Origin: an uncultured Candidatus Saccharibacteria bacterium
GTDB taxonomy: Bacteria > Patescibacteriota > Minisyncoccia > Phycocordibacterales > PALSA-1337
Assembly (NCBI GenBank): GCA_964495685.1
Contig: CAZBVQ010000001.1
Location: 233,521 to 297,520 of the forward strand
Direction of reading: 5' to 3'
DNA: 64,000 nt
The notes beneath the pieces were generated by a model. That model searched no databases, was not told the origin of the DNA, and worked only from the letters and a program-made list of their open reading frames with translations. Positions 1 to 57,636 of the stretch are shown one piece after another (position 1 is the stretch's first letter; the number at the start of each line of letters is the position of its first letter). A program made the translations under genes and the position numbers.

Positions 1-102
1 TGTTGAGAATTTGATTAGTATTCTTATGGAAAAGGGAAGTAGTGGCTTCTGGGGCTTAAAAGATGTTATAAAAAGCTAGTTGGTAACTCGACTACACAAA
101 CC

Positions 103-141
103 CTGTGAACCAAGCTAAGCTGGTTCACAGAGTCCTTTTTT
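103..141 (+). terminator. Rho-independent terminator
   Basis: Perfect 10-bp stem CTGTGAACCA/TGGTTCACAG with an 8-nt loop, followed by a T6 run. Likely ends a gene lying upstream of the window. Confidence 0.55.
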
Positions 142-197
142 CGTGATATTGTTAATTCACAATTAAATATGTTGCCTAAACTCTTTGCAAAAAGGGC

Positions 198-342
198 ATG
201 GCATTAAGTCCTATCAAGCGCAGAAACCCCGTCGTGGGGTCGCTTGATAGGCCATATCGGGAAACCGGTATGAGAGACTTCGGTCTCTACCCGCGGCGGG
301 ATTTCTGCGTCCTGCTCGGGATTAAAAGCCCTATCAAGCAAT
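198..342 (+). promoter_or_regulatory. Structured 5' leader (possible cis-regulatory RNA or attenuator) upstream of CDS 343
   Basis: Several strong hairpins with GAAA and UUCG tetraloops. CCTATCAAGC occurs twice (212-222 and 322-332) and both copies can pair with GCTTGATAGG (243-253), giving mutually exclusive structures. ORFs 198-431 and 204-527 lie inside and look spurious. Confidence 0.3.
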
Positions 343-1017
343 ATGGAATCAAAAAAATCTACCGTAAGTATCTTCAGGAATCTGTATTTCTGGGGAATTG
401 TGCTGTCTGTGCTTATGTTTCTAACGGTTAATAAGGTCGTCGGGTTGTCGTTAGATCTTTTGACGCTGATTCTTTGGCATAAGAAAAATCTTAAGACAAA
501 GCACATGATCGATAGTGAGGCGATCAAAAAAGAGGCACGCGATTACCTTGAGAAAGCAAAACAAGAGGGAAGGCTTCCTGTAACTCAGAGTTCAGCTCTT
601 CTCGATCCAGGAGAAAACGCATACTTAACTGAAAATACAGTACTCAGTGAGACCAGAGCTGTTCGTCAAACCACCGGAAGGTTTGCCAGTACGCGTATAT
701 TCGGAAGTATGAGGTACGGCGCTGTCGCGAGTCGATCGGAAAGTCATCAAGAGTGGAGAGTAATCGATAGCGGGAAATTAATCTTGACTAACAAGAGCTT
801 TATATTTCTAGGCAACAAGGAAAAAAGAAATCTTCCGCTTAAAAAGATATTGGCAGTTGAGACTTATGCCAATGCGATAGAAGTAAGCTCTGATACAAGA
901 AGCAAGAGTTTGAGACTCCCTGTCCGTAATCCATATATCTGGACGTCTGCGATACAAATTTTGAGATCAACAGATGGTAATGGTTCCATGTCCAATGCTT
1001 CTATTCGCATTGAATGA
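343..1017 (+). CDS. Hypothetical membrane-anchored protein (N-terminal TM helix, possible bacterial PH-like C-terminal domain)
   Basis: 224-aa ORF with a hydrophobic N-terminus. No recognised catalytic motif. Confidence 0.45.
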   Translation: MESKKSTVSIFRNLYFWGIVLSVLMFLTVNKVVGLSLDLLTLILWHKKNLKTKHMIDSEAIKKEARDYLEKAKQEGRLPVTQSSALLDPGENAYLTENTVLSETRAVRQTTGRFASTRIFGSMRYGAVASRSESHQEWRVIDSGKLILTNKSFIFLGNKEKRNLPLKKILAVETYANAIEVSSDTRSKSLRLPVRNPYIWTSAIQILRSTDGNGSMSNASIRIE

Positions 1018-1119
1018 TTCCATTTAACTCCAGACGTGTGGAAGGTGGATTTGTTCAATTTGAACCATAGCAATTTAAGAGTCTGTCTTAATTCTAAGTG
1101 ATTTCAATTAAATTCCTGA

Positions 1120-1659
1120 TTATTTTTGTCCCTTCACCTTTTTCCATATCCCATCTCTTTCTTTCATAGAATCTTCCATTGCTTGAAGGACTCTATTTAA
1201 TCTAGCCTCCTTTTCTTCCTTGCTCTCTGTTTTAGTTTGATCTTTTGGTCTCGTATCGAGCAAGCCTGACGAACGTAACTCATCAAGCTTATCAATATCG
1301 TCCTCAATATTATTGCTCATATTGCCAACATAGTCATGTATGAACTTTTCAAATCGCAATTCAGCCAGTACTTTTGAAAGAGGTTTATATCTATCATGAT
1401 TGTTTGATAGATAGTATTTTGCAGCTCCCATATCACCCTCATGTATCTTCTTTATGACTACAGATTCAGCAAGGTCCCCAAGGCTTTCACGTCCAATAGA
1501 CAGGGCCTTGTTTACCTCAACTCTGAACTCATAGTTATCTTTTCTCCAACGGTTGAAAGTCGCACGACCTAAACCGATTTTTCTACAGGCCAGCCGCATA
1601 TTCGGAGTTTCTCTAAGAAATTCTATGAGCTTCTGTTTGTCATAATTACTTCGAGTCAT
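1120..1659 (-). CDS. Phage terminase small subunit-like HTH DNA-binding protein
   Basis: N-terminal HTH (ACRKIGLGRATFNRWRKDNYEFR) followed by a region typical of TerS/Nu1-like proteins. Sits next to the ParB-methylase gene, as in phage packaging modules. Confidence 0.5.
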   Translation of the reverse strand: MTRSNYDKQKLIEFLRETPNMRLACRKIGLGRATFNRWRKDNYEFRVEVNKALSIGRESLGDLAESVVIKKIHEGDMGAAKYYLSNNHDRYKPLSKVLAELRFEKFIHDYVGNMSNNIEDDIDKLDELRSSGLLDTRPKDQTKTESKEEKEARLNRVLQAMEDSMKERDGIWKKVKGQK

Positions 1660-2983
1660 TTATTTTCTGGCGCTTTTTGCCTGTGAATTTCTCCCAGCGG
1701 TTCAAAATTACTTCCGCATATACTGGAGATTTTTCCATCAGGAAACACCTTCGACCCAAGGTAATTGATGCGATCAAAGTAGATCCACTCCCGCCAAACA
1801 CTTCTAATACCAATTGGCCGCGTTTGGTTAACACTTTTATGTAAGGTATGAGTATTGGTAGTGGTTTGACCCCGAAGATGATGCCTTGGCCTGATGATTT
1901 CTCATCTGCTGCATTGTAGTCAATGAAATCTGTAGGGCAGTATTTCTTACCTTTTTCATATGACTCCCATTGTGGCTTGCCAGAGATGGCAAACAAGGCA
2001 GTACGGTATTCGTTTTCAATCAGTTCTTCCTCCTCCTCAAGTCTTATCTCCGCTTGTGGTTCGCTCGTTCCAACCATGGCGATATCGTATTTAGAGAATA
2101 GCTTATGTTTGCCGGCATACCCCTGATTGCGATTGGGGAGATGCCAGACGATCATATTCCTGACTTTCCAACGTTTTTCCATTTCATTCCAGATTGTTCT
2201 TATATTCTTCCAGTTTTCATAGACAATGATAGAGAAATCCTTGGCTTGCACTTTGCTTACATTGTTCATCCATAATTGGGTGAAGTTATCTGGCAAAGAT
2301 TCTGTTTCAAGATAGCGTCTATTTTTCTTTGTACCGAAACCGACAGTAGCCTCGCCATGACGTGTTTTACCTTTTAAATAGTCGAGAATATATGGAGGAT
2401 CCGTCATAACCATATCTGCCTTATGGTCGCCCATGAGCCTTAGCATGTCCGCTTCAATAGTTGAATCTCCGCACATTAACCGCGAACCATCGAGATCATA
2501 CAGATCACCTTTTTTGACTGTTATCTCAGTAATATCCAACTTATCAAGTTCATGTTGAAGATCGAATTGTTCCTCAGCTTTTTCTTCTTTGAAAATGTTG
2601 TCTAATTCTTCAGAATCAAACCCAACTGATGCTAGGAAAGACTCGTCGAATTCCGCCAATAGTTCAAGATCAAACTCACCCTGGTTTTTATTTAATCGCA
2701 AGTTCAACTCTTTTTCTTTTTCAATATCGGGTATATTTATGTATACGATAGGGACTTCGGTATAGCCCAGCTCCTTTAGAGTTTCTAATCGAAAGTTGCC
2801 ACCGATAACTATATTTTTTCGATTTTCGGCCCCGTTCAAAATTATTGGATCGACTACTCCAAATTTTTTAATACTTTCTTTAAGGTGCTTTCTTGCTTCC
2901 TCATCCCATACTCTAGGGTTATATGGAGCAGGGATGAGGCTGGTAATAGGAACATACTCAACACGCAGATTTTTGTCTTGCAT
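1646..2983 (-). CDS. ParB-like nuclease domain fused to N6/N4 DNA methyltransferase (phage-type)
   Basis: N-terminal ParB/Srx motif (VPITSLIPAPYNPR ... GGNFRLETLKELGY). C-terminal MTase with DPPY (motif IV) followed later by FGGSGST (motif I), i.e. beta-class order. Confidence 0.85.
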   Translation of the reverse strand: MQDKNLRVEYVPITSLIPAPYNPRVWDEEARKHLKESIKKFGVVDPIILNGAENRKNIVIGGNFRLETLKELGYTEVPIVYINIPDIEKEKELNLRLNKNQGEFDLELLAEFDESFLASVGFDSEELDNIFKEEKAEEQFDLQHELDKLDITEITVKKGDLYDLDGSRLMCGDSTIEADMLRLMGDHKADMVMTDPPYILDYLKGKTRHGEATVGFGTKKNRRYLETESLPDNFTQLWMNNVSKVQAKDFSIIVYENWKNIRTIWNEMEKRWKVRNMIVWHLPNRNQGYAGKHKLFSKYDIAMVGTSEPQAEIRLEEEEELIENEYRTALFAISGKPQWESYEKGKKYCPTDFIDYNAADEKSSGQGIIFGVKPLPILIPYIKVLTKRGQLVLEVFGGSGSTLIASITLGRRCFLMEKSPVYAEVILNRWEKFTGKKRQKINDSK

Positions 2984-3248
2984 GATAATTATTGCCAGAC
3001 ACCCACCTATAGATTAAAAGCACCGTGGCGATTTCGAGGCATCTGGCAAAAAGAAAACGCCCAATGCTGTTTTTGTTTTTGTGTGGCGTGTTTGTGTTAT
3101 AGCTCGTGTAAAGAAGTGCTGGCTATTTCAGCAGTGTTTGTTTTTGTGTTACTTACATATTATACCTCCCAATTTATCTGTCAAAGACAAAGATGATTAA
3201 CAGGCATGATTTCTTGATACTGTAAAAATAAAGTGATAGATTTCCATC

Positions 3249-3824
3249 ATGAATAACATATTGCTAAAGTTTTTTCTTATTTTGGAGAGGTTGGGAGTAG
3301 ACCGTAAACACTTGAAGCAATATGTTGTGTTCTTGATCGTGGTCTCAATCGTAACATTCTCTCTTATCTACTCTGGAGTTTTCTCTACGGTTGGTCCTAT
3401 TATATTTATTGTAATCTTCGGGATATTTTTCACTATTTTATGGTTTATCGCTGGTTATAATGTCTTTCGTTCGTTATTGGTCGCAAGTATTGGTTTGAGC
3501 TTTATCATCTTTATAGGTCAATCATATTGCTCTCTACCTGTAGTACAACGCACGGCAAATGATTCGCTTATGACTCTGGTTGGCTTTGGCTTTATTTACG
3601 TCGTCGCTCAATTCATATGGTCATTGTATAAGGAATTATTTGGTGACAAACACGCAAGAGAGGAATGGAGACAAAAGGGTATAGTACCTCTTTTTAAGGA
3701 GATAAATGGTGGTAAACATAATTGGCTCGTTCTTGTAATTTACGGTGGTTTGGTAATTCTCTTTGTTTGGCAAGTCTATAATGTTATCAATCCGATCATC
3801 CGTGGACTTTGTGTATATCAATAA
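3249..3824 (+). CDS. Integral membrane protein, unknown function
   Basis: About 5 predicted hydrophobic helices. Confidence 0.45.
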   Translation: MNNILLKFFLILERLGVDRKHLKQYVVFLIVVSIVTFSLIYSGVFSTVGPIIFIVIFGIFFTILWFIAGYNVFRSLLVASIGLSFIIFIGQSYCSLPVVQRTANDSLMTLVGFGFIYVVAQFIWSLYKELFGDKHAREEWRQKGIVPLFKEINGGKHNWLVLVIYGGLVILFVWQVYNVINPIIRGLCVYQ

Positions 3825-3858
3825 TTATGAATCAAGAAAAGATAATTATGGTAGGATT

Positions 3859-4263
3859 ATGCTTATGATTGAAACAATTTATCCTACTGATTGGCAGAAG
3901 ACACGAGGTATTTATTCGCCAGCAAAAAAGATCGATCTTGGCGGAGCTTATTTAATTTTCGTATCAGGTCAGCAGGTTGATAAAAATGCAGATAATGAAG
4001 CTATAACATCTGATGTTGAAGAACAAACAGAACTGGTCTTTCGGGCCATTGAGAAGATTCTAAAGGCAGCTGGTGCATCCGTAGATGATGTTGTAAAAGC
4101 TCAAATATTTCTGACAGATATAAATGATTTTCCAAAGGTGTCAGTTATAAGAGATAAGTGGTTTGCAAAAAGTAGGCCGGTAAGTACTCTGGTTGAAGTA
4201 AATGCCATGACACGCAAAGGGGCGAAAGTTGAGATTGAAGTAACAGCGGTTATCGAGAAATAA
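3859..4263 (+). CDS. ridA: RidA/YjgF family reactive-intermediate deaminase
   Basis: C-terminal signature AQIFLTDINDF...PVSTLVEVNAM..GAKVEIEV. Start moved to the internal ATG to avoid overlapping the upstream membrane gene. Confidence 0.8.
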   Translation: MLMIETIYPTDWQKTRGIYSPAKKIDLGGAYLIFVSGQQVDKNADNEAITSDVEEQTELVFRAIEKILKAAGASVDDVVKAQIFLTDINDFPKVSVIRDKWFAKSRPVSTLVEVNAMTRKGAKVEIEVTAVIEK

Positions 4264-4273
4264 TCGAAAATAT

Positions 4274-4735
4274 ATGGATGACAAACTTTTTTTAAGTGAA
4301 GCAATTAAGAAAGCAAAAGAATCGGTAACTAAAGGTGGATTTCCTGCTGGTGCGGTGGTAGTTAAAGATGGCAAGATTATTGGGTCGGGTATAAGTATCG
4401 GTAATACATTATTTGATCCAACAAGTCATGGGGAAATAGCAGCAATTAGAAATGCCTGTGCAAATATCAAAACGCATGAACTGTTCAATGCGGTAATCTA
4501 TACTTCAATGGAGCCATGTTCGATGTGTTTTAGTGCAACTATGTGGGCAGGAATTGGAAAGATTGTTTATGCTTGTTCCAGAGAAAAAGTAGCCGAAGAA
4601 TATTACGGTGGTCATTATCACATTATGACAATAAATGGTCAGCTAATTCATCCTATACAATTGGTGCATGTTCCCGATCTCGAACAGGAGTCTTTGGATG
4701 TTGTTAAAGAATGGGAAAAGGCGATCGGTATATAA
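4274..4735 (+). CDS. Nucleoside/tRNA-specific deaminase (CMP/dCMP deaminase zinc-binding family, TadA/guanine deaminase-like)
   Basis: HGE...PCSMC zinc-binding motifs (HGEIAAIRNA, MEPCSMCFSA). Confidence 0.8.
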   Translation: MDDKLFLSEAIKKAKESVTKGGFPAGAVVVKDGKIIGSGISIGNTLFDPTSHGEIAAIRNACANIKTHELFNAVIYTSMEPCSMCFSATMWAGIGKIVYACSREKVAEEYYGGHYHIMTINGQLIHPIQLVHVPDLEQESLDVVKEWEKAIGI

Positions 4736-4782: not shown

Positions 4783-5403
4783 TTACTTCTCTCGCAATAC
4801 AAGCCTGAATGATTTGTTTTCAAGACCGCCACTACCGCGATTACACGGTTCGACAGCCTTGAGGGCAAATTTCAGGCCAGCCTTCTTAAGGACTTGATTG
4901 GCTCCTTGAATCCGCATGACGACACCTCGTGTCAGTTCCCAGCATCTAATCGGCTTATTGCCGTTGTCTCTCAACTTTCTGAACATGGTTTTGTAAATGT
5001 CCGAACAGTCGATTGAGAGGATGGTTTCCCATGTTTGCTGAGTGATATCATTTCCACCATCGGCCAACAGCAGTTTCTCAAGGTATGCCATTAGCTTTTC
5101 TCTGGCGATTTTGACAGGATCATCAGATGGCTCAATAATGTGATGCTCAACTTCAAGGGTGAAGACGAGCACAACCTCAGTGGCGACCAACACGATCGGA
5201 CCGTTGTCATTCTGAGTCTTGCAACTTAAGATTGCACGACCGCCAAATAACAAACAAATCTGATGCTCAGTCAGTTCAAGGTTCCGGAGGGCTTTTTCTG
5301 GAACCCTGAACTCTTCCGCAATGAGTGTGTGTCTGTAGATCATGCTTCCTTTATGCAAAGGTGATTCCCGAAGACATACATATCCGATTTCAGTAATTTT
5401 CAT
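4783..5403 (-). CDS. Hypothetical protein, no recognisable family
   Basis: 206-aa ORF, tightly coupled (15-nt gap) to the upstream gene on the same strand. Confidence 0.45.
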   Translation of the reverse strand: MKITEIGYVCLRESPLHKGSMIYRHTLIAEEFRVPEKALRNLELTEHQICLLFGGRAILSCKTQNDNGPIVLVATEVVLVFTLEVEHHIIEPSDDPVKIAREKLMAYLEKLLLADGGNDITQQTWETILSIDCSDIYKTMFRKLRDNGNKPIRCWELTRGVVMRIQGANQVLKKAGLKFALKAVEPCNRGSGGLENKSFRLVLREK

Positions 5404-5418
5404 AGGCCACCTTTTTGG

Positions 5419-5943
5419 TTAACGTCCAGGGCCATTGATTGTCCAGACAACTTGGTCGTGATTGCTGCCAAGGATTGGACGTCCGTAAGGCCTGAAGGCC
5501 TTGAACTGCCGATCGAACTCATCAGTCTTGTTGTAGAGACCAAGCTCAAATAATGCTCCGCTGGTCACGGGTGGTACCTCGGCATTCTCAATGGTGCCTT
5601 TGACCTCTTTGGTTTCCCAACAGAGAACGTCTCCATTATCGGCGCGGAAACGAATTTCCAACATGACTTTGGGAGGAATTGGTGCTTCACCCTCACGACC
5701 GTAGCATTTCTCCATATTTTCGCAATAGAAGAAGGCTTCGATCATGACATCGCAATGAACACCCGCGGCGTCTCCTTCAACAGGGGTAACGGCGATGTCT
5801 ACCTGCGTGATGGTGGCTGGAGCATTGAAGGTATGTTCGAGATAAATCTTGAGCACACCTAGCGCTTGCATCCGAACCACACTGATTGGTTGAGTGTTCT
5901 TACGGGTGGCACGACCACGGAACAGATCAAGTAGATTTTTCAT
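5419..5943 (-). CDS. Hypothetical protein, no recognisable family
   Basis: Start trimmed to MKNLLDLF. Forms a two-gene operon with 4783-5403. Confidence 0.45.
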   Translation of the reverse strand: MKNLLDLFRGRATRKNTQPISVVRMQALGVLKIYLEHTFNAPATITQVDIAVTPVEGDAAGVHCDVMIEAFFYCENMEKCYGREGEAPIPPKVMLEIRFRADNGDVLCWETKEVKGTIENAEVPPVTSGALFELGLYNKTDEFDRQFKAFRPYGRPILGSNHDQVVWTINGPGR

Positions 5944-6160
5944 AGAACTATTCTTTCTCAGAACATGTCTGCAACATGCAGACACGGCTACTGTCTCAGC
6001 AGCCTCTTTTTCGCAAGAAATATTGTGAAGAAAAGGCTACTGGGACAATGTTTTTATCTAGTATATCAAGATGTTTCTGGTTGCAATTATACACCATAAT
6101 ATAGCCATCTGTCAATAAATCCTTTAAACCTAACCTTCATATCTAAAGGGTCAGAAGACT

Positions 6161-6253
6161 GTCTCATTTGTCTCATTTTAAAAATTGACTGTGACCAGGG
6201 AGGGTAGAACATATGACAGATTTAGTGCTAAGATAGCCTTACAAGGTCTCACC
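6161..6253 (+). repeat. Promoter-like repeated module, copy A (GTCTCATTT x2 / TTGACTG ... ATAGCCTTACAAGGTCTCACC)
   Basis: Tandem GTCTCATTT GTCTCATTT then TTGACTG (6185-6191), then a 21-bp core ATAGCCTTACAAGGTCTCACC (6233-6253). It sits about 65 bp upstream of the ATG at 6317. Copy B at 10307-10403 is near-identical (21/22 in the core). Confidence 0.55.
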
Positions 6254-6316
6254 TCATGTGGTTCTAGACCGGAGAACACAGCAAATAAGTTGCCGTCAAC
6301 GGCAAGAATTATCAAA

Positions 6317-7201
6317 ATGAAAGATCGAATAGAAGTTAAAGATGTTCTACCTGAAGTACCAAAAATTACAGACGAACAATTAGAAGCAGCACGTAAGTCA
6401 GGAAGATATGAGTCGATTGCCTTTGAACAGTATAAGTTTGTAGCACAGTTGATAGCTATCGTTGCGAGAATTGATAAGACGTCGGAGGGATTCAAGAAAA
6501 TTCCTTCTCAGCAGTACCACATTTTGATGGGATTGATGAATCGTTGCGCTCGGTTAATTTTGAGCACAATGGAGCTTTCTCATGAAGGTAAATTTGGCGA
6601 AACTTCGTCGATAATATTTCGATGTATCTTCGAATCCGGGGTTAAAATTATATGGTTTTGTTCTGATGGTTTACAAAGTAAGTTCGATCTTTATATAAAT
6701 GACGGCCTCAAGCCTGAAATTGAACTTCTGGATACGATTAAGAAAAATGTAACAGAACGAAATGGTGCTATCTTAGGTATAGAAGAGCGGATGATGGATT
6801 CTGTCTATTATCATATTAAGACAGGTGAGACCACGGAGTCGGCGGTCCGACTCTCAAAAAAGATGCCTGATATGGCTACAATTGTTAGAGATATTGGCTT
6901 TGATCGAATTATGTATGTAGCCAATCATAGAATTGGATCACATCATGTTCATGGCACGTGGCCTAGCCTGCTATTTTCTTATTTGGAAAAAGAAGGTGAT
7001 GGTCTGATTGCCAGAGGAAATAATGTGTCAACCAGGGCGAATGAATATATAGCAACATCTATAATAATGACTCGAACAATGAGTGCATATTGCGATTTTA
7101 TGCTAGAAACACCCATGAAAGAAATTTTAATAAACCTTTGTCTTGAAGAAGAAAATGATTTGATTAGGATATTTGAAGATATGACAAAGCATGGTTGGTA
7201 A
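6317..7201 (+). CDS. Hypothetical protein with HEPN-like R-x4-H motif (ANHRIGSHHVH)
   Basis: Start placed at the internal ATG (MKDRIEVKD) downstream of the repeat and of a hairpin at 6290-6306. No other family signature. Confidence 0.45.
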   Translation: MKDRIEVKDVLPEVPKITDEQLEAARKSGRYESIAFEQYKFVAQLIAIVARIDKTSEGFKKIPSQQYHILMGLMNRCARLILSTMELSHEGKFGETSSIIFRCIFESGVKIIWFCSDGLQSKFDLYINDGLKPEIELLDTIKKNVTERNGAILGIEERMMDSVYYHIKTGETTESAVRLSKKMPDMATIVRDIGFDRIMYVANHRIGSHHVHGTWPSLLFSYLEKEGDGLIARGNNVSTRANEYIATSIIMTRTMSAYCDFMLETPMKEILINLCLEEENDLIRIFEDMTKHGW

Positions 7202-7418
7202 TTTATTATTTTGAGCAAACCTTGCCCCTTCTTTCAATTCTTCCAATCATCCACACTGTCTCCATAAAACAATAAAATCCAATCTGCCATAGTGAATGAA
7301 GGAGACATACAGATGCTTCGAAAGAAGTGGTATACTTTTCGTACAAGGATTTTATGTTTTGGACCAAAAGCTCAACATCGTACACGTCCCCCAGCAAAAT
7401 TTGTCCGTACACCATAAA

Positions 7419-8414
7419 ATGGACACTCTCCTCAAAAAAATAAATGATCCAGGGCTTCAAGCTATTATTGGTTGTATTACCATAGATATGGGTAAAGAGA
7501 TAATAACGGAAAGGTTCAAGGACATTGAGAAAATGTATCCTCATTACGACAGGGATTTTTTATGGCTGCTAGCTTACTCGCAGGAACGTTCGCTTGTAGT
7601 TCGAAGTTATATTGAAGCAAATTATAAAAAATTTCACCAAAGTCTAGACTCGGGATTTCCTAGGAAACTGTCGAATACAAATAGATTTGAATCTCACATG
7701 TGGGAGATGATTCTTTGTGATGTACTTTCCTCTTCTGGGGAATTGATTCCGAAGTCTTCTGCGGGCGCGGATTTAATTCTTAAAGTGCCAAATGGACAGA
7801 GTATTCAGGTTGAAGCAATCGCCCCAGATGAGGCTGATGATGCGAGCCTTCGTGCTGAAAGGCCCGACTATTCTAAAAGTAATACGTTTACTTCAGGTGG
7901 AAATATAGAAGACATCGAGAATCCAGTATTACTTAGGTGTATTCATGCCTTTGATAAAAAGGCCAAAAAAGGATACAGAAAAGATCAGCCACTTATTATC
8001 GCAATTAATACAAGTAAGGTTGTGGGTATTGTATCTTTGGATGACTTTATTATCAGGCGTGTCCTGTTAGGGTTAGGATGCGTGACAATTACACGTAGGA
8101 CTGATGGTTCCTATCAAACTGGCCTACAACAAAAAAGCGATCTATCGAAACCTAATGAGACGAGTTTCTCAGTCGGTCGTTTTAGAGATCCTGAATATAG
8201 TCATGTAAGTGGGGTCATCTATACGTCTCAAAAATCTCTAAGCCTTATTCCGGGTGGATATGGTTGGTCTAATAGTGGTATATATTATGTCCCTAATCCT
8301 ATGGCGATAAATAAAGTTAATGCCAATTTTGACTTTTTTAAGACGATCATTTGTGATGAGGAAGCTTATAGGGACATTCTGCCAAAAAGAGATTTCGTAA
8401 GTAATGTTGTGTAG
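7419..8414 (+). CDS. Hypothetical protein, no recognisable family
   Basis: Start placed at MDTLLKKIND. About 331 aa. Confidence 0.45.
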   Translation: MDTLLKKINDPGLQAIIGCITIDMGKEIITERFKDIEKMYPHYDRDFLWLLAYSQERSLVVRSYIEANYKKFHQSLDSGFPRKLSNTNRFESHMWEMILCDVLSSSGELIPKSSAGADLILKVPNGQSIQVEAIAPDEADDASLRAERPDYSKSNTFTSGGNIEDIENPVLLRCIHAFDKKAKKGYRKDQPLIIAINTSKVVGIVSLDDFIIRRVLLGLGCVTITRRTDGSYQTGLQQKSDLSKPNETSFSVGRFRDPEYSHVSGVIYTSQKSLSLIPGGYGWSNSGIYYVPNPMAINKVNANFDFFKTIICDEEAYRDILPKRDFVSNVV

Positions 8415-8506
8415 GCTACATGCTTTTTAGTATTAGTAGAAGCATAGTTGAAACTCTCAGTGGTACAGGTATTTCTTAAAAGAATAAAATGGATTAAGAT
8501 ATCTAC

Positions 8507-8743
8507 ATGCCTGACACAGAAGTATGCCCAATATGTTTACGCCCATACGGTCTGACAAACAAAAAAGTCAGATATCATCTCGGATACCAACCCCCAAGAT
8601 ATATTTATGCGTGTCAGTCATGTAATTTTGCCGAGTATCTTTCTAGACATTGGAGAAAACATTTAACACGATGGCAGTGGTATAAAATAAATGTGGTCAG
8701 AAAATTTACAGGCAAGAAGTATGACCATGAAGTCGTGCAGTAG
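8507..8743 (+). CDS. Small zinc-ribbon protein (CPxC...CxxC)
   Basis: CPICLRPYG ... YACQSCNFAEY. Basic and Trp-rich C-terminus. Confidence 0.4.
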   Translation: MPDTEVCPICLRPYGLTNKKVRYHLGYQPPRYIYACQSCNFAEYLSRHWRKHLTRWQWYKINVVRKFTGKKYDHEVVQ

Positions 8744-8778
8744 TTGTCAGTAAAGTCCCAACCCCCCCACACCCACCC

Positions 8779-9309
8779 ATGAAAATTCTCATTACAGGCA
8801 TAGCGGGAAGTGGTAAGACGACGATAGCGACCGAATTGAATAGGTTGGGTTATAGTGCAACTGATCTAGATACAAACGGAACGTGTGCCTGGGTAAATAA
8901 AAAGAGTGGTCTTGAAACTGAATATTCAGAAGCCTCTGGTCCACAGTGGATCGATGAACATCGCTGGCAGGTGATTGTGCCAAAACTTACTGCATTACTT
9001 TCACGTTTCCCGACCGATAGGAAGCTATTTGTAACGGGAAAGATAGCGCGCATGCAGGTGAAAGAAATGAGTACACTATTCGATATCATCTTCTTACTCA
9101 GGCCTGATGATCTGATTATCGATGAACGTTTGGCACAGCGCACCAGTAATCACAAAAACTTCGCAAAAACGACACAAGAAAGGGAGGTCATTCTACGCAA
9201 CAGGCATGAATTTGAAAAAGCGTGTCTCGATAGTGGGGCGCTCGTTATTAGTAATAATGGTAGTCTGCAGAGTGTGATTGGGGAGATACTGGGGAAGATT
9301 AAGGGGTAA
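8779..9309 (+). CDS. P-loop NTPase / small nucleotide-kinase-like protein (AAA_33 / zeta-toxin-like fold)
   Basis: Walker A GIAGSGKTT at the N-terminus, 176 aa, RLAQR-type lid region. Confidence 0.65.
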   Translation: MKILITGIAGSGKTTIATELNRLGYSATDLDTNGTCAWVNKKSGLETEYSEASGPQWIDEHRWQVIVPKLTALLSRFPTDRKLFVTGKIARMQVKEMSTLFDIIFLLRPDDLIIDERLAQRTSNHKNFAKTTQEREVILRNRHEFEKACLDSGALVISNNGSLQSVIGEILGKIKG

Positions 9310-9461
9310 TGGGCGCTTGAGATGTGATGGTGTGATATCAGGCTGATTGTTCACGAGAGAACCTCTAGAGAAAAGGCTTTGGAGCAAGCCGCTAATTTTG
9401 TACCTTAAATGAAAAACCACCACCGCTTGCTATGCGATGGTGGTCGTGACCATTTTTCAGT

Positions 9462-10163
9462 TTATGGATTCTTTAGGAACGGTTCTGGGTTAACTTCGGC
9501 GTCTTCGCCAAAAAAATTCCCAGTGTTAACGTCGACGAGACTAAACTCGTAGCACGATATGCCGGTGCGTACGCTCAGTGCGAAGGTGTTCGCAATGAAC
9601 GCATGGAGCGCATGGCGACAGAATCCATCCACATCCGGCTCCCGAGGCGTTCCCAATTGTTGGCGGAGCGATTTGACTGAAATAAATACCTCGGCAGTGT
9701 TCACTTCAATATTACACTGTTTGAGGGTAAACGTGGTGAGATGAACGCGGTCGGGGCAATAAGCTCTGATCGTGATATCGTATACGGACTTTCTTGCTTC
9801 CACGTCTTCAATCTTGGCAGTCCATATGGTTGCCTCAGTCATGGGCACAGGCTCGATATTCTCGACATCAAAGCGGACTTGATCACTGATCTGGGGACGA
9901 CCCCCCTTGTTCGCTGACCCTTTAGCAATCCTCAGTTGAATTTTTCGCTCCTCTGCGCCGCAATCCAAGACAACTTTGCGGCCATGGAACAAGTTGGAAA
10001 CCATTCGCTTAATGGTCTGCAGGTGATTCCTTTTAAACTTGTCGATTGTCTCAGTTGTCTGTCCTGAAAAGACGGGGGACAGGAGTTTTACCAGTTCTAC
10101 CACGAGGGAGAGCACGCTCCCGCTCGAGGGTCCATTTTCGGCAGTTTCGGATGATTGAGGCAT
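9462..10163 (-). CDS. Hypothetical protein, no recognisable family
   Basis: Start trimmed to MPQSSETAENG. Convergent with the plus-strand genes of the island. Confidence 0.45.
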   Translation of the reverse strand: MPQSSETAENGPSSGSVLSLVVELVKLLSPVFSGQTTETIDKFKRNHLQTIKRMVSNLFHGRKVVLDCGAEERKIQLRIAKGSANKGGRPQISDQVRFDVENIEPVPMTEATIWTAKIEDVEARKSVYDITIRAYCPDRVHLTTFTLKQCNIEVNTAEVFISVKSLRQQLGTPREPDVDGFCRHALHAFIANTFALSVRTGISCYEFSLVDVNTGNFFGEDAEVNPEPFLKNP

Positions 10164-10306
10164 AAGCCTTGTATCCTTTTGGTTGTGTGTTGTTGTCAAA
10201 TAACGGTATATCGGCACATTGCCGATTGCGTTACTTTCACACCATAACATAAAATATTTACTGGGTCAAATACCTAAACTGACTTACAAAATATGATCAT
10301 CTGAGT

Positions 10307-10403
10307 GTCTCATTTTGACTGCGTTGAGCCCTAAAATAGAGCGACCGAGACGCGTAGGAAAGAATCAGAAAGAAATGTTAGAATAGCCTTACAAGGTTTC
10401 ACC
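10307..10403 (+). repeat. Promoter-like repeated module, copy B (TGTCTCATTTTGACTG ... ATAGCCTTACAAGGTTTCACC)
   Basis: Same motifs as copy A but with a different internal spacer (69 vs 48 nt). About 80 bp upstream of the small ORF at 10486. Confidence 0.55.
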
Positions 10404-10485
10404 ACTTAATTCTACCAATCTGGGCCTGACCAACTGTGGTCGTAGAATGGGACGGTTAGTAATTAAAAATAATTAATTCATCACT

Positions 10486-10659
10486 ATGTCACGAAGAAAA
10501 ATATTGCTTGTCGTATGGGCTCTTTCAATAATCATTTCAGGTGTGTTGGTTTGTTCTGCGTCTGGTAATGCGGAATACGGCTGGGCAGTCAGTCTCGGGC
10601 TTCTCGCAGTTTCGCTCGGGGTTCCGCTTATGCGAGCGCTCACGGAGTTTTCGAAGTAG
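10486..10659 (+). CDS. Small membrane protein (57 aa, two hydrophobic helices), not in the ORF track
   Basis: ATG MSRRKILLVVWALSIIISGVLVCSA... to TAG. Downstream of repeat copy B. Confidence 0.3.
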   Translation: MSRRKILLVVWALSIIISGVLVCSASGNAEYGWAVSLGLLAVSLGVPLMRALTEFSK

Positions 10660-10718
10660 GCTTCAACTTCGTCACATACATCCCACGCCCAAGCTTTTTC
10701 CTATATAATACCCCCATC

Positions 10719-12404: not shown

Positions 12405-13283
12405 ATGAAGATTTCCACACAGAGAATATGTACCGATGACGGACTTGAGTTATTCGGACTCTTGTACGAACCTGATGCGAAGTCAGCAAAAATACTTGTA
12501 CATGTTCACGGTATGGCAGGAAATTTTTACGAAAATCCATTTCTTGATTTCATTGCAAAAACTCTCACAGATCAGGGAATAGCCTTTTTCACCTTTAATA
12601 ATAGAGGATGCGAGTCTTTTAAGGATTTGACGCAGAAGGTTGGCGGTAAGAAAAAGTTTGTAAGAATAGGTAACGCCTATGAAAAATTTGAGGAATCAGT
12701 GCTGGATATCAAAGCTACTATAGATGCCGTTTCCACATTAGGTTTTTCTGAAATACACCTTTCAGGTCATAGCCTCGGGAGTCCCAAAGTTGTTTATTAT
12801 GTGTCAGAAACAAAGGACCCACGGATTAATTCAGTGCTACTCCTCTCTCCTTCCGATATGCTTGGTTTAGTGCGAGCTGATAGGGAGAGATTCGAGCGAG
12901 ATATTCAAGAAGCCACAACAATGTCCCAAAATGGGAAAGGAGGGGATCTTATTTCATTGAAAGTTTGGGATGAGTGCCCAGTAAGCGCGGACACCTATAT
13001 AAGTTTATTTGGCGATAATTCCAAGGCGGGCATTTTCAACTTCTATAATTCGTCCGACCGTCTAGAAGTTTTAGGGAAGATCACTCAACCTCTATTTGCG
13101 GTGATGGGTAGAAAAGATGATGCGTTAACTGTTTCGATAGAAGAGACCATGGAACGTATAACAAAGGCTACAAAAAATAGCCCCCATGTTGAGACACAGA
13201 TTCTCGGCGATGCTAATCATGGATATTTTGGAGATGAACAGGGGCTGGCTGATGCCATACTTGGATGGCTATGTCGTAAGTAG
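12405..13283 (+). CDS. Alpha/beta hydrolase
   Basis: HVHGMAGN and GHSLG nucleophile elbow. Start moved to the ATG just after the SDR stop, because the track ORF overlaps the SDR in another frame. Confidence 0.8.
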   Translation: MKISTQRICTDDGLELFGLLYEPDAKSAKILVHVHGMAGNFYENPFLDFIAKTLTDQGIAFFTFNNRGCESFKDLTQKVGGKKKFVRIGNAYEKFEESVLDIKATIDAVSTLGFSEIHLSGHSLGSPKVVYYVSETKDPRINSVLLLSPSDMLGLVRADRERFERDIQEATTMSQNGKGGDLISLKVWDECPVSADTYISLFGDNSKAGIFNFYNSSDRLEVLGKITQPLFAVMGRKDDALTVSIEETMERITKATKNSPHVETQILGDANHGYFGDEQGLADAILGWLCRK

Positions 13284-50292: not shown

Positions 50293-51309
50293 ATGAATAA
50301 CGATATTTCACCAATTGTTCGAGAGAAGGCGCCACTCATTCTTGCCGAGATCAAGAAGGCCACGAATATATTGCTGCACTGTCACCCATCACCTGATCCA
50401 GACAGTGTTGGCTCTGCGTTGGCTATGAAATTTGCATTGGAGCAGATGGGCAAGAAAGCCACGGTTATAAAAGGCGACTCGGATATTCCACAAGCTTTCA
50501 TGCATTTTCCTGGGGCTACTGAGATTATGATGAAAGGTTTCGGCGATATCAATCTACATGAATATGATTTATTTATATCACTAGATTCTGGATCTATAGA
50601 CCGTATATCTCGCCAGCCGATCGTCTTTCCGGACACTATGAAGGTGATTAATATTGATCATCATAATACCAATTCTAATTTCGGTAGTATCAACTTGGTG
50701 GAAGTCACTTACCCAGCAACCTGTGCCATTTTGTCTGATTTGTTTATTGCATGGTCAATAAAAATGGATAGTAATATTGCGTCAAATATTTTTATCGGTA
50801 TTTATACTGACACAGGAGCATTCAAATACCGGGGAGTAACCAAACGGATTTTTGAAATGGCTGCCAGCCTCTCTTCTTTCATCCCTGATATTCCAGAATT
50901 GGTGACCCGAATGGAGAATTCGAACACACCTGCATTTATGAGGTTTGAGGGTGCGGCTCTCGATGCGATAGAGACTTCTTCAAGTGGCAGGTATGCAATT
51001 TCATCGATTACGTATAAGACTCTTGTCGAAAAGAAGATTCCCATAAACGAGATACGGGGGAGTGAGCTTTCCTCGTTTATGCTTAGTGTTATTGATTGGG
51101 ACATTGTGGCTTCTGCGGTTGAGTTTGAACCTGGTAAAGTCAAACTTAGTTTCCGGTCACGTGACTTTTCGAAATTTGATATATCTAAATTAGCAGTCAT
51201 GCTGGGCGGGGGTGGACATAAAATGGCGGCCGGAGCGATCGTTTCAGGATCAATTGCTGAGGTGAAAAAAATAGTTGCCGAAAAAGTTAAAGAACTCTAT
51301 AATCTCTAA
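50293..51309 (+). CDS. DHH-family phosphoesterase (NrnA-like)
   Basis: DHH motifs (HCHPSPDPDSVGSA, DHHNTN) and DHHA1 (GGGHKMAAGA). Confidence 0.85.
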   Translation: MNNDISPIVREKAPLILAEIKKATNILLHCHPSPDPDSVGSALAMKFALEQMGKKATVIKGDSDIPQAFMHFPGATEIMMKGFGDINLHEYDLFISLDSGSIDRISRQPIVFPDTMKVINIDHHNTNSNFGSINLVEVTYPATCAILSDLFIAWSIKMDSNIASNIFIGIYTDTGAFKYRGVTKRIFEMAASLSSFIPDIPELVTRMENSNTPAFMRFEGAALDAIETSSSGRYAISSITYKTLVEKKIPINEIRGSELSSFMLSVIDWDIVASAVEFEPGKVKLSFRSRDFSKFDISKLAVMLGGGGHKMAAGAIVSGSIAEVKKIVAEKVKELYNL

Positions 51310-57170: not shown

Positions 57171-57210
57171 GGCAGTTGTCGTTTTGGATAAAACGTGGTA
57201 TACTAATATG

Positions 57211-57606
57211 AGCAGTACCAGACAACCACTCTTCATCTTTCGGGATGAGGGGAGGAAAGTCCGAACACTGGCATGGTGAGCGAGCGATCGTTCTCATCAT
57301 GCAGACAAGTAGCAGGTAACGCCTGTCAGGGTAATACCCAGAGGTGCGAACAGAGACGCTCGAGCCGAAAGGCGGAAGCTCCTCGCAAGAGGATGAACTC
57401 TTTGGCAACAAGGAGGTGCAACGGCAAAATCCTTACTTCAGTGCAAGACCGTGTCCTACGAAGCTCGCGATTTGCGAGTGTAGTAGGAAGAGTCGCTCGA
57501 GGTACACAGTGATGTGTATCCCAGATAAATGGTTGTCATCGGTCGCCTACGCTTGCTCCGCAAGCTACGGCGTACTGAAACATAATTCGGCTTATGGTAC
57601 AGCACA
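57211..57606 (+). ncRNA. rnpB: RNase P RNA (bacterial type A)
   Basis: Conserved GGGAGGAAAGTCCG (P4), CAGGTAACGCCTG, GTGCGAACAGAGA, CCGAAAGGCGG, CCAGATAAATGGTTGTCATCGG and ACATAATTCGGCTTATGGT (P4 3' strand). A P1-like 5'/3' pairing is present. ORFs 57273-57512 and 57344-57658 inside look spurious. Confidence 0.85.
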
Positions 57607-57608
57607 AC

Positions 57609-57636
57609 AAACCCCCGAGAAATCGGGGGTTTGTGT
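57609..57636 (+). terminator. Rho-independent terminator after rnpB
   Basis: AAACCCCCGAgaaaTCGGGGGTTTGTG. Confidence 0.6.

Follow-up and report, generated by a model that had tools for sequence, protein, structure and literature searches.

The window analyzed here is a 64,000-nt stretch of contig CAZBVQ010000001.1. Between 4.8 and 10.4 kb it carries seven genes, A to G, which raise the question of whether they act together as one system or were collected separately. A preliminary description of this DNA had marked seven open reading frames (ORFs) there, all of which we found where it had placed them, and had presented them as a candidate novel defence system without recognizable families. We arrive at a different answer, to which we assign a probability of about 0.7. 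A genome of the Patescibacteria holds an integrated mobile island, at least 15 kb long, and the region makes up the variable cargo on its right-hand side; the genes there are separate modules, not parts of one system. The host is probably Saccharibacteria-like; the nearest homologs of gene D and of the island recombinase come from bins labelled Paceibacterota, Patescibacteria group and Saccharibacteria. Patescibacteria, also called the candidate phyla radiation (CPR), have genomes under 1 Mb and are attached to other bacteria, and their phage resistance is little understood. Window proteins were compared with the Pfam, PADLOC, PHROG and NCBIfam profile libraries and with PDB sequences. Plain coordinates are positions in the window, and those beginning with L refer to contigs other than the window.

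The left part of the island was read from eight contigs that carry the same proteins as the window, all with an identical layout. Contigs with this locus measure 0.5-0.7 Mb. One of the eight, L040, shows the DNA upstream of the window start. The order is a tRNA gene and a low-GC peptidase S51 gene, then a serine recombinase, then proteins of 213 and 982 aa without family, a LOOT RNA and the window genes up to G. The recombinase (421 aa, minus strand) is encoded at L040:4747-6012, about 3.6-4.9 kb to the left of the window. Its domains are Resolvase, Recombinase and Zn_ribbon_recom, and among the PHROG families it matches the integrase phrog_95 (E 5e-63). The 213-aa and 982-aa proteins are within L040:6151-9737, and the larger one has a 40%-identical relative in another D-carrying island, L003. 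Inside the window, the LOOT RNA (Rfam RF03000; 173-288, plus strand; 92 bits vs a gathering score of 46.4) is followed after 54 nt by a 224-aa protein without family (343-1017, plus strand). Next come a terS-like helix-turn-helix (HTH) protein (1120-1659, minus strand), with a match to the terminase small subunit family phrog_24579 (E 1.5e-5), and a ParB-N/DNA methyltransferase fusion (1646-2983, minus strand; Pfam N6_N4_Mtase and ParB_N; phrog_498, E 5e-79). The terS-like and ParB-methyltransferase pair that had been described beside the seven genes is thus real.

The same backbone with other cargo was found in two related loci, L017 and L043. L017 contains a recombinase (57% identity), a LOOT RNA, a small ORF, a terS-like protein (29%) and a ParB-methyltransferase (30%). 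L043 contains a recombinase (62% identity), a LOOT RNA, a small ORF, a terS-like protein (37%) and a methyltransferase. In both, as in the window, the terS-like gene is followed by the methyltransferase in the same arrangement. The LOOT RNA is full-length in all three islands (77-92 bits; L017:1417-1544 and L043:1772-1904 besides the window copy), lies 54-72 nt 5' of a small same-strand ORF in each, and adjoins the serine recombinase in L017 and L043. It was absent from 15 other loci scanned. What lies to the right of the methyltransferase differs. In L017, a Patescibacteria metagenome contig, this slot holds a LexA-like repressor (LexA/S24-type), a compact cyclic-oligonucleotide-based anti-phage signaling system (CBASS; L017:5545-6820; one-transmembrane effector, E 1e-59; cyclase, E 3e-81), a weak DUF5677-like gene, a D homolog and a PD-T4-6/Stk2-like Ser/Thr kinase. 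In L043 it holds a KAP NTPase (1096 aa) and the closest homolog of gene C (72% identity). Since L017 and L043 carry the same backbone and other cargo, we read the window region as the cargo slot of an island family. The large serine recombinase, LOOT RNA, small ORF, terS-like HTH protein and ParB/DNA-methyltransferase form the conserved backbone, and the slot to the right of the methyltransferase has received unrelated, shuffled genes.

Base composition was compared with 29 long ORFs beyond 14 kb (GC 49.8 +/- 2.4%; GC at third codon positions, GC3, 53.7 +/- 5.1%). Over most of the island GC is 33-43% vs the background of 49.8%, and the low values span from about the serine recombinase to window position 8.8 kb. 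The six genes at 343-4735 have a GC of 36-41.5% (z -3.5 to -5.7); the 224-aa protein beside the LOOT RNA is at 41.5% (z -3.5). Three of the six lie to the right of the methyltransferase and are low-GC cargo themselves. They encode a 191-aa predicted membrane protein without family (3249-3824, plus strand; GC 36%, z -5.7), a RidA/L-PSP protein (3859-4263, plus strand; Pfam Ribonuc_L-PSP, E 7e-29) and a cytidine/dCMP-type deaminase (4274-4735, plus strand; Pfam dCMP_cyt_deam_1, E 3e-24). The RidA protein is similar, too, to the C-terminal portion of PADLOC PD-T4-2_B (E 3e-13), which may reflect no more than the common RidA domain. Among the seven genes, C (37.2%, z -5.2), D (38.7%, z -4.6), E (39.2%, z -4.4) and F (43.9%, z -2.5) are low in GC, A is intermediate (45.6%, z -1.7), and B (49.9%) and G (48.9%) are background-like, with z about 0. 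The stretch from 4783 to 10700 had been called clearly AT-richer, which is correct for C to F and wrong for B and G, with A between. Nor is it confined to that stretch, since per-gene GC and the upstream contigs show that low GC is patchy inside it and extends far to the left, over 1-4735 and about 5.6 kb beyond the window start. Outside the island, a DUF1749/alpha-beta hydrolase gene (12405-13283, plus strand; GC 41.5%, z -3.4) and an ORF at 50293-51306 (plus strand; GC3 0.405) are also atypically low in GC and may be other acquired genes.

The gene that most directly suggests defence is D (7419-8414, plus strand, 331 aa). It matches PADLOC PD-T7-5 (PDLC04110; E 5.3e-14, 50.1 bits, protein residues 131-311), PADLOC PD-T7-1 (PDLC04073; E 1.8e-6) and phrog_8571 (E 5e-18), so the earlier statement that nothing here matches a named system does not hold. 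PD-T7-1 and PD-T7-5 are listed as PD-(D/E)xK nuclease systems selected in an E. coli functional screen (PMC10952713; PMC9519451). Each protects against phage as a single gene, and both came out of a screen of the E. coli pangenome (Vassallo et al. 2022, PMC9519451). The ORF of D opens at 7296. We found 46 homologs of D, and most are 320-335 aa long and begin at the position equivalent to M42. In the AlphaFold model the predicted local distance difference test (pLDDT) score is 83.9 overall and below 50 at residues 1-39. Because the homologs begin at M42 and residues 1-39 are modelled poorly, the start is most likely M42 (7419) and not 7296.

In the model of D, helices at the N-terminus are followed by an alpha-beta-beta-beta-alpha-beta core and then by a C-terminal part rich in beta strands; the core is the restriction-endonuclease-like fold of the PD-(D/E)xK superfamily. 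Residues E137, D159 and E173 are invariant across the homologs, and in some of these D159 falls within G-P-D, which is the canonical "PD". D resembles PD-T7-5 and PD-T7-1 in matching both profiles, in fold and in size. It also resembles them in standing alone while its neighbors change and in being carried on mobile elements near integrases or recombinases. It differs from PD-T7-5 in its host, a Patescibacterium and not E. coli, and in its distribution, since neither C nor D had a tblastn match in 50,697 phage or 72,556 plasmid records. The D family likewise had no confirmed match in IMG/VR viral contigs, and the PDB sequence search returned only chance Mdm2 matches (E about 0.5). D is a stand-alone nuclease module of the PD-T7-5/PD-T7-1 kind, and we infer that it would be the anti-phage effector, cutting invading nucleic acid directly or as abortive infection. 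A Type II restriction-modification (R-M) pair made up of D and the ParB-methyltransferase was considered and rejected. The methyltransferase goes with the backbone even without D, as in L043, and most D loci have no such methyltransferase, so the two are inherited independently.

Gene C (6317-7201, plus strand, 294 aa) belongs to DUF5677 (Pfam PF18928; E 2e-14, 54.2 bits vs a cut-off of 27.1, model positions 1-165 of 166). The preliminary description had seen an R-x4-H motif of HEPN RNases in this protein. The string on which this was based, HRIGSHHVH, is present, but the assignment finds no support. We found 170 homologs of C, and in 120 homologs the motif position carries Lys 66 times and Arg 54 times. 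With Pfam (E <= 0.1) only DUF5677 and no HEPN profile came up, PADLOC gave nothing, Foldseek with the model gave no match at E <= 0.001, and the PDB sequence profile search gave no match. With an Arg that is not conserved, no HEPN profile and no match to a solved fold, we rejected the HEPN reading of C as unsupported. Like HEPN RNases such as AbiV, AbiU2 and ApeA, C is all-helical and has a basic position, K/R205, four residues ahead of the invariant H210. The residues that are essentially invariant in the 120 homologs are G207, S208, H209, H210, H212, G213 and W215, together with N75, R76, R79, E95, R102, E106, E156 and R158. In the all-alpha model (pLDDT 88.5) the His cluster is in a loop between two helices. 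This conserved Asn/Arg/Glu/His cluster suggests that C may be an enzyme, possibly a metal-dependent one.

The DUF5677 family travels with serine recombinases. One homolog of C (P0145) is a resolvase-DUF5677 fusion, and in another related locus, L046, the DUF5677 gene overlaps a resolvase gene by 4 bp. DUF5677 has been reported as enriched beside serine recombinases in a preprint (PMC12632615). C matches the whole Pfam model and sits, like other members, on a mobile element with a serine recombinase. The family has no known function, and C is no different in kind. In the slot, C would be a DUF5677 module separate from D.

The other five genes were compared with the 23 other D loci (24 distinct loci including the window, gathered by genome and metagenome scans) and with the four other loci of the C-family comparison set; the window's own copy is counted separately from these related loci. 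With tblastn, the genes A, B, E, F and G had no match in any of these loci. Gene A (4783-5403, minus strand, 206 aa) is a near-ORFan, with nine matches among 1.84 billion representative proteins that mostly cover only residues about 117-201, no Pfam match above the cut-off, and no PADLOC, PHROG or PDB match. Gene B has no family in Pfam, PADLOC, NCBIfam-type scans or PHROG and no PDB match. Gene G (9462-10250, minus strand, 262 aa) is an ORFan of host-like composition that found only itself among 5.8 billion clusters. It has no family, PHROG or PDB match and a single weak PADLOC match (E 0.009). A, B and G show no similarity to each other, and we rejected the idea that they are mutual paralogs. 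Gene E (8507-8743, plus strand, 78 aa) is called by gene callers in only some assemblies, and profile scans gave no family; its CxxC...CxxC pattern makes it a putative zinc ribbon. Gene F (8779-9309, plus strand, 176 aa) is a small P-loop, nucleotide-kinase-like protein of Pfam AAA_18 (38.2 bits vs a cut-off of 29.4). It had been described as an NTPase of the AAA_33/zeta-toxin style. The P-loop is correct, but AAA_33 scores 18.3 bits, below its cut-off of 27, and no zeta-toxin families were returned. Weaker matches of F were to NCBIfam archaeal-type nucleotide kinases and the dephospho-CoA kinase 1uf9 in the PDB. Three of the genes said to have no recognizable family, C, D and F, have one or a profile match. 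In the slot, E and F would be an accompanying zinc ribbon and small P-loop kinase-like protein, and the B-A operon and G near-ORFans of host-like composition.

The arrangement of these genes bears on the proposal that A to G, or C to G, form one new multi-gene defence system. A and B form a minus-strand operon in which A is second, with a gap of 15 nt. The start of B differs between gene callers, giving 5419-5943 (ATG, 174 aa) or an end at 5985 (GTG, 188 aa). A sigma-70-type promoter, TTGACA-18-TATAAT, faces the operon at 6086-6115 (minus strand; 12/12, a consensus match only). On the plus strand, a duplicated promoter-like module, also noticed in the preliminary description, brackets the remaining genes. 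Copy 1 (6226-6253), 64 nt 5' of C, consists of the extended -10-like TGCTAAGAT and then AGCCTTACAAGGTCTCACC. Copy 2 (10376-10403) consists of the extended -10-like TGTTAGAAT and then AGCCTTACAAGGTTTCACC, and 83 nt 3' of it is a 57-aa hydrophobic ORF (10486-10659, plus strand), which gene callers call in some assemblies. The 21-nt repeats (6233-6253 and 10383-10403) are identical at 20 of 21 positions, with none expected by chance, and the boxes ahead of them fit TGnTAAGAT or TGnTAGAAT. A GTCTCATTT box is found about 65 nt 5' of each extended -10-like box (TGCTAAGAT and TGTTAGAAT). Both copies lie in divergent intergenic regions, one between B and C and the other between G and the 57-aa ORF/VOC gene. 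Judged by sequence, they may be two promoters with one common operator or start region. The repeat has only these two copies in the 64-kb window and none in related islands, and we rejected it as a general genome motif. An Rfam scan of 4.5-11 kb gave only a sub-threshold chance microRNA match. Elsewhere in the window, a housekeeping bacterial class A RNase P RNA was found at 57210-57609 (plus strand, 108.5 bits).

The genes are contiguous in an accessory region, several have no known function, and the bracketing module, or the 21-nt repeats around C to G, could be taken as the borders of a unit. However, they are spread over both strands in three or more transcription units, and convergent terminator-like hairpins stand between F and G (9375-9445; plus strand 9375-9390, minus strand 9445-9415 with a 12-bp stem). 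Their composition is a mosaic of 37% to 50% GC. Five of the seven occur in none of the 23 other D loci and in none of the four other C loci examined; G has no homolog and A almost none. We rejected the seven-gene system for lack of co-conservation and consider a single multi-gene system extremely unlikely.

Neighbor-ORF clustering across the 24 D loci pointed instead to the separate-module reading, as only one family recurred, the serine recombinase, in seven loci. In four of those seven, no more than about 450 bp separates it from D. Several compact D islands are found at tRNA or tmRNA genes. In L003, a pair of proteins of 1083 and 1120 aa (L003:1794-8419, minus strand) stands beside a mini-island of recombinase and D. 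The 1120-aa protein resembles a helicase (phrog_26785, E 2e-102), and the pair may be another defence module.

The island family can also be compared with two known kinds of element. Under the concept of recombinase-associated defence loci, or RADS (a preprint by Andersen et al., PMC12632615), a serine recombinase marks a locus with neighboring defence systems. DUF5677 and KAP NTPase, both named there as recombinase-linked domains (PMC12632615), are both present in this island family. The window island, 15 kb or more in length, differs in that its large serine integrase is placed at the far end and is not co-transcribed with the cargo. It also has a fixed backbone of LOOT RNA, terS-like protein and ParB-methyltransferase, and Patescibacteria as hosts. 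From general knowledge, phage satellites, such as islands like the phage-inducible chromosomal islands (PICI), share the integrase, the terS-like gene, the tRNA neighbor, the defence genes and the lack of capsid genes. They differ in that no replication, primase or capsid-redirecting genes were recognized in the window island, and the terS assignment here is weak (E 1.5e-5).

Several observations weigh against the interpretation of the region as separate defence modules on a mobile island. On the left, the island is probably bounded by the tRNA gene at L040:3787-3857, and there are no tRNA genes within the 64-kb window. Exact-protein look-ups of the flanking genes found no island-free relative, since 8 of 8 contigs carry the island. 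The edges given here are accordingly putative, and the island would be, or would once have been, mobile. No flanking tRNA repeat of at least 11 nt, as would mark an att site, was found. Since the identity left behind by a serine integrase amounts to only about 2 bp, no visible att repeat is expected. The host-like composition of B, G and partly A means that these genes may not have come with the rest. For gene D, only 181 of the 346 positions of the PD-T7-5 profile (54-234, its central part) are aligned, and both the helical N-terminus and the beta-rich C-terminus of the protein fall outside the match. In the D family the canonical Lys of (D/E)xK, two residues after E173, is replaced by Ile or Val. 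Invariant K222 and R214, or near-invariant K153, might stand in for it. Finally, a review gives no mechanism for PD-T7-5 or PD-T7-1 (PMC9519451; PMC10952713), and the single DUF5677 member tested in Enterococcus faecalis did not number among the genes active in defence (PMC12632615).

This last result, the lack of defence by a DUF5677 gene, fits another explanation, in which the cargo is not anti-phage at all. It would then consist of accessory metabolic or maintenance genes, for example for nucleotide salvage, and the nuclease would serve the element itself through addiction, exclusion of rivals or DNA processing. The RidA protein, the cytidine/dCMP deaminase and the AAA_18 kinase-like protein are all present in the cargo, and by this account Patescibacteria depend on nucleotide salvage. 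On the other hand, the best profile matches of D are experimentally selected anti-phage genes. The slots of the sister islands hold bona fide defence in the form of CBASS, the KAP NTPase and the PD-T4-6-like kinase. Type I R-M is present in 2 of the 24 D loci, and one D homolog adjoins a Type I R-M system together with a superinfection-immunity gene. We regard a cargo without an anti-phage role as very unlikely.

The remaining point against separate modules is that a DUF5677-type gene stands directly beside a D homolog in three loci (the window, L012 and L017), which is more than the simplest expectation for independent cargo. C and D could then be a two-gene system, with DUF5677 as a sensor/regulator or antitoxin-like partner and the nuclease as effector, both co-transcribed from the module at 6226. 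The three loci are independent, and the two genes are on the same strand in all of them and occur in both orders. C precedes D in the window; a DUF5677 gene with a Pfam match lies 7 bp 3' of the D homolog in L012; and a DUF5677-like gene lies 12 bp 5' of it in L017 (Pfam E 4e-4, below the cut-off). As DUF5677 is rare, three adjacencies in about 19 informative loci are far more than random placement would give. When the immediate neighbors of D elsewhere were tested for hidden DUF5677 similarity, only L012 (hhalign) and L017 (Pfam, sub-threshold) gave any. Most D homologs have unrelated immediate neighbors, such as DnaJ, TerC/DUF475, a SEC-C protein, PPDK_N and proteins without family, or none at all, and the four other C-family loci have no D nearby. 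The DUF5677 partners of D also come from very different subfamilies, with hhalign values of 45% (L012) and 0.3% (L017) against the C profile. In the window the gap between C and D is 217 nt with promoter-like sites inside it. Both families are serine-recombinase cargo, which alone is enough to bring them together. Independent modules are favored because the other neighbors of D are unrelated, the C loci lack D and DUF5677 is itself tied to recombinases, and we consider a two-gene system of C and D distinctly unlikely.

Taken together, the preliminary description is partly supported. It was right in spirit, as an accessory, horizontally acquired, defence-island-like region beside a mobile module was indeed found, in the form of a low-GC recombinase island whose sisters carry CBASS, a KAP NTPase and a kinase. 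It was wrong in its specifics, including the novel seven-gene system. The practical value of the locus is modest, since the main gene is of a known family and the remainder are ORFans. What interest is left lies in the island family with its LOOT RNA, in the loose link between DUF5677 and the nuclease, and in ORFans occupying a slot that elsewhere holds defence. A bolder interpretation goes further. The backbone would define an undescribed family of defence-carrying Patescibacteria islands, B-A, G and E-F, and possibly C with D, would be new anti-phage genes or partners, and LOOT would be a regulatory RNA. We hold this to be rather unlikely as a whole.

The backbone can be used as bait for further cargo genes in Patescibacteria, and the LOOT RNA, a motif without known function, gains a mobile-element context. 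As a defence island, this one is fairly ordinary; it is the host that is unusual. Patescibacteria carry recombinase-borne defence cargo like that of large-genome bacteria, with a PD-T7-5-like nuclease in this island and CBASS, a KAP NTPase and a Ser/Thr kinase in its sisters.

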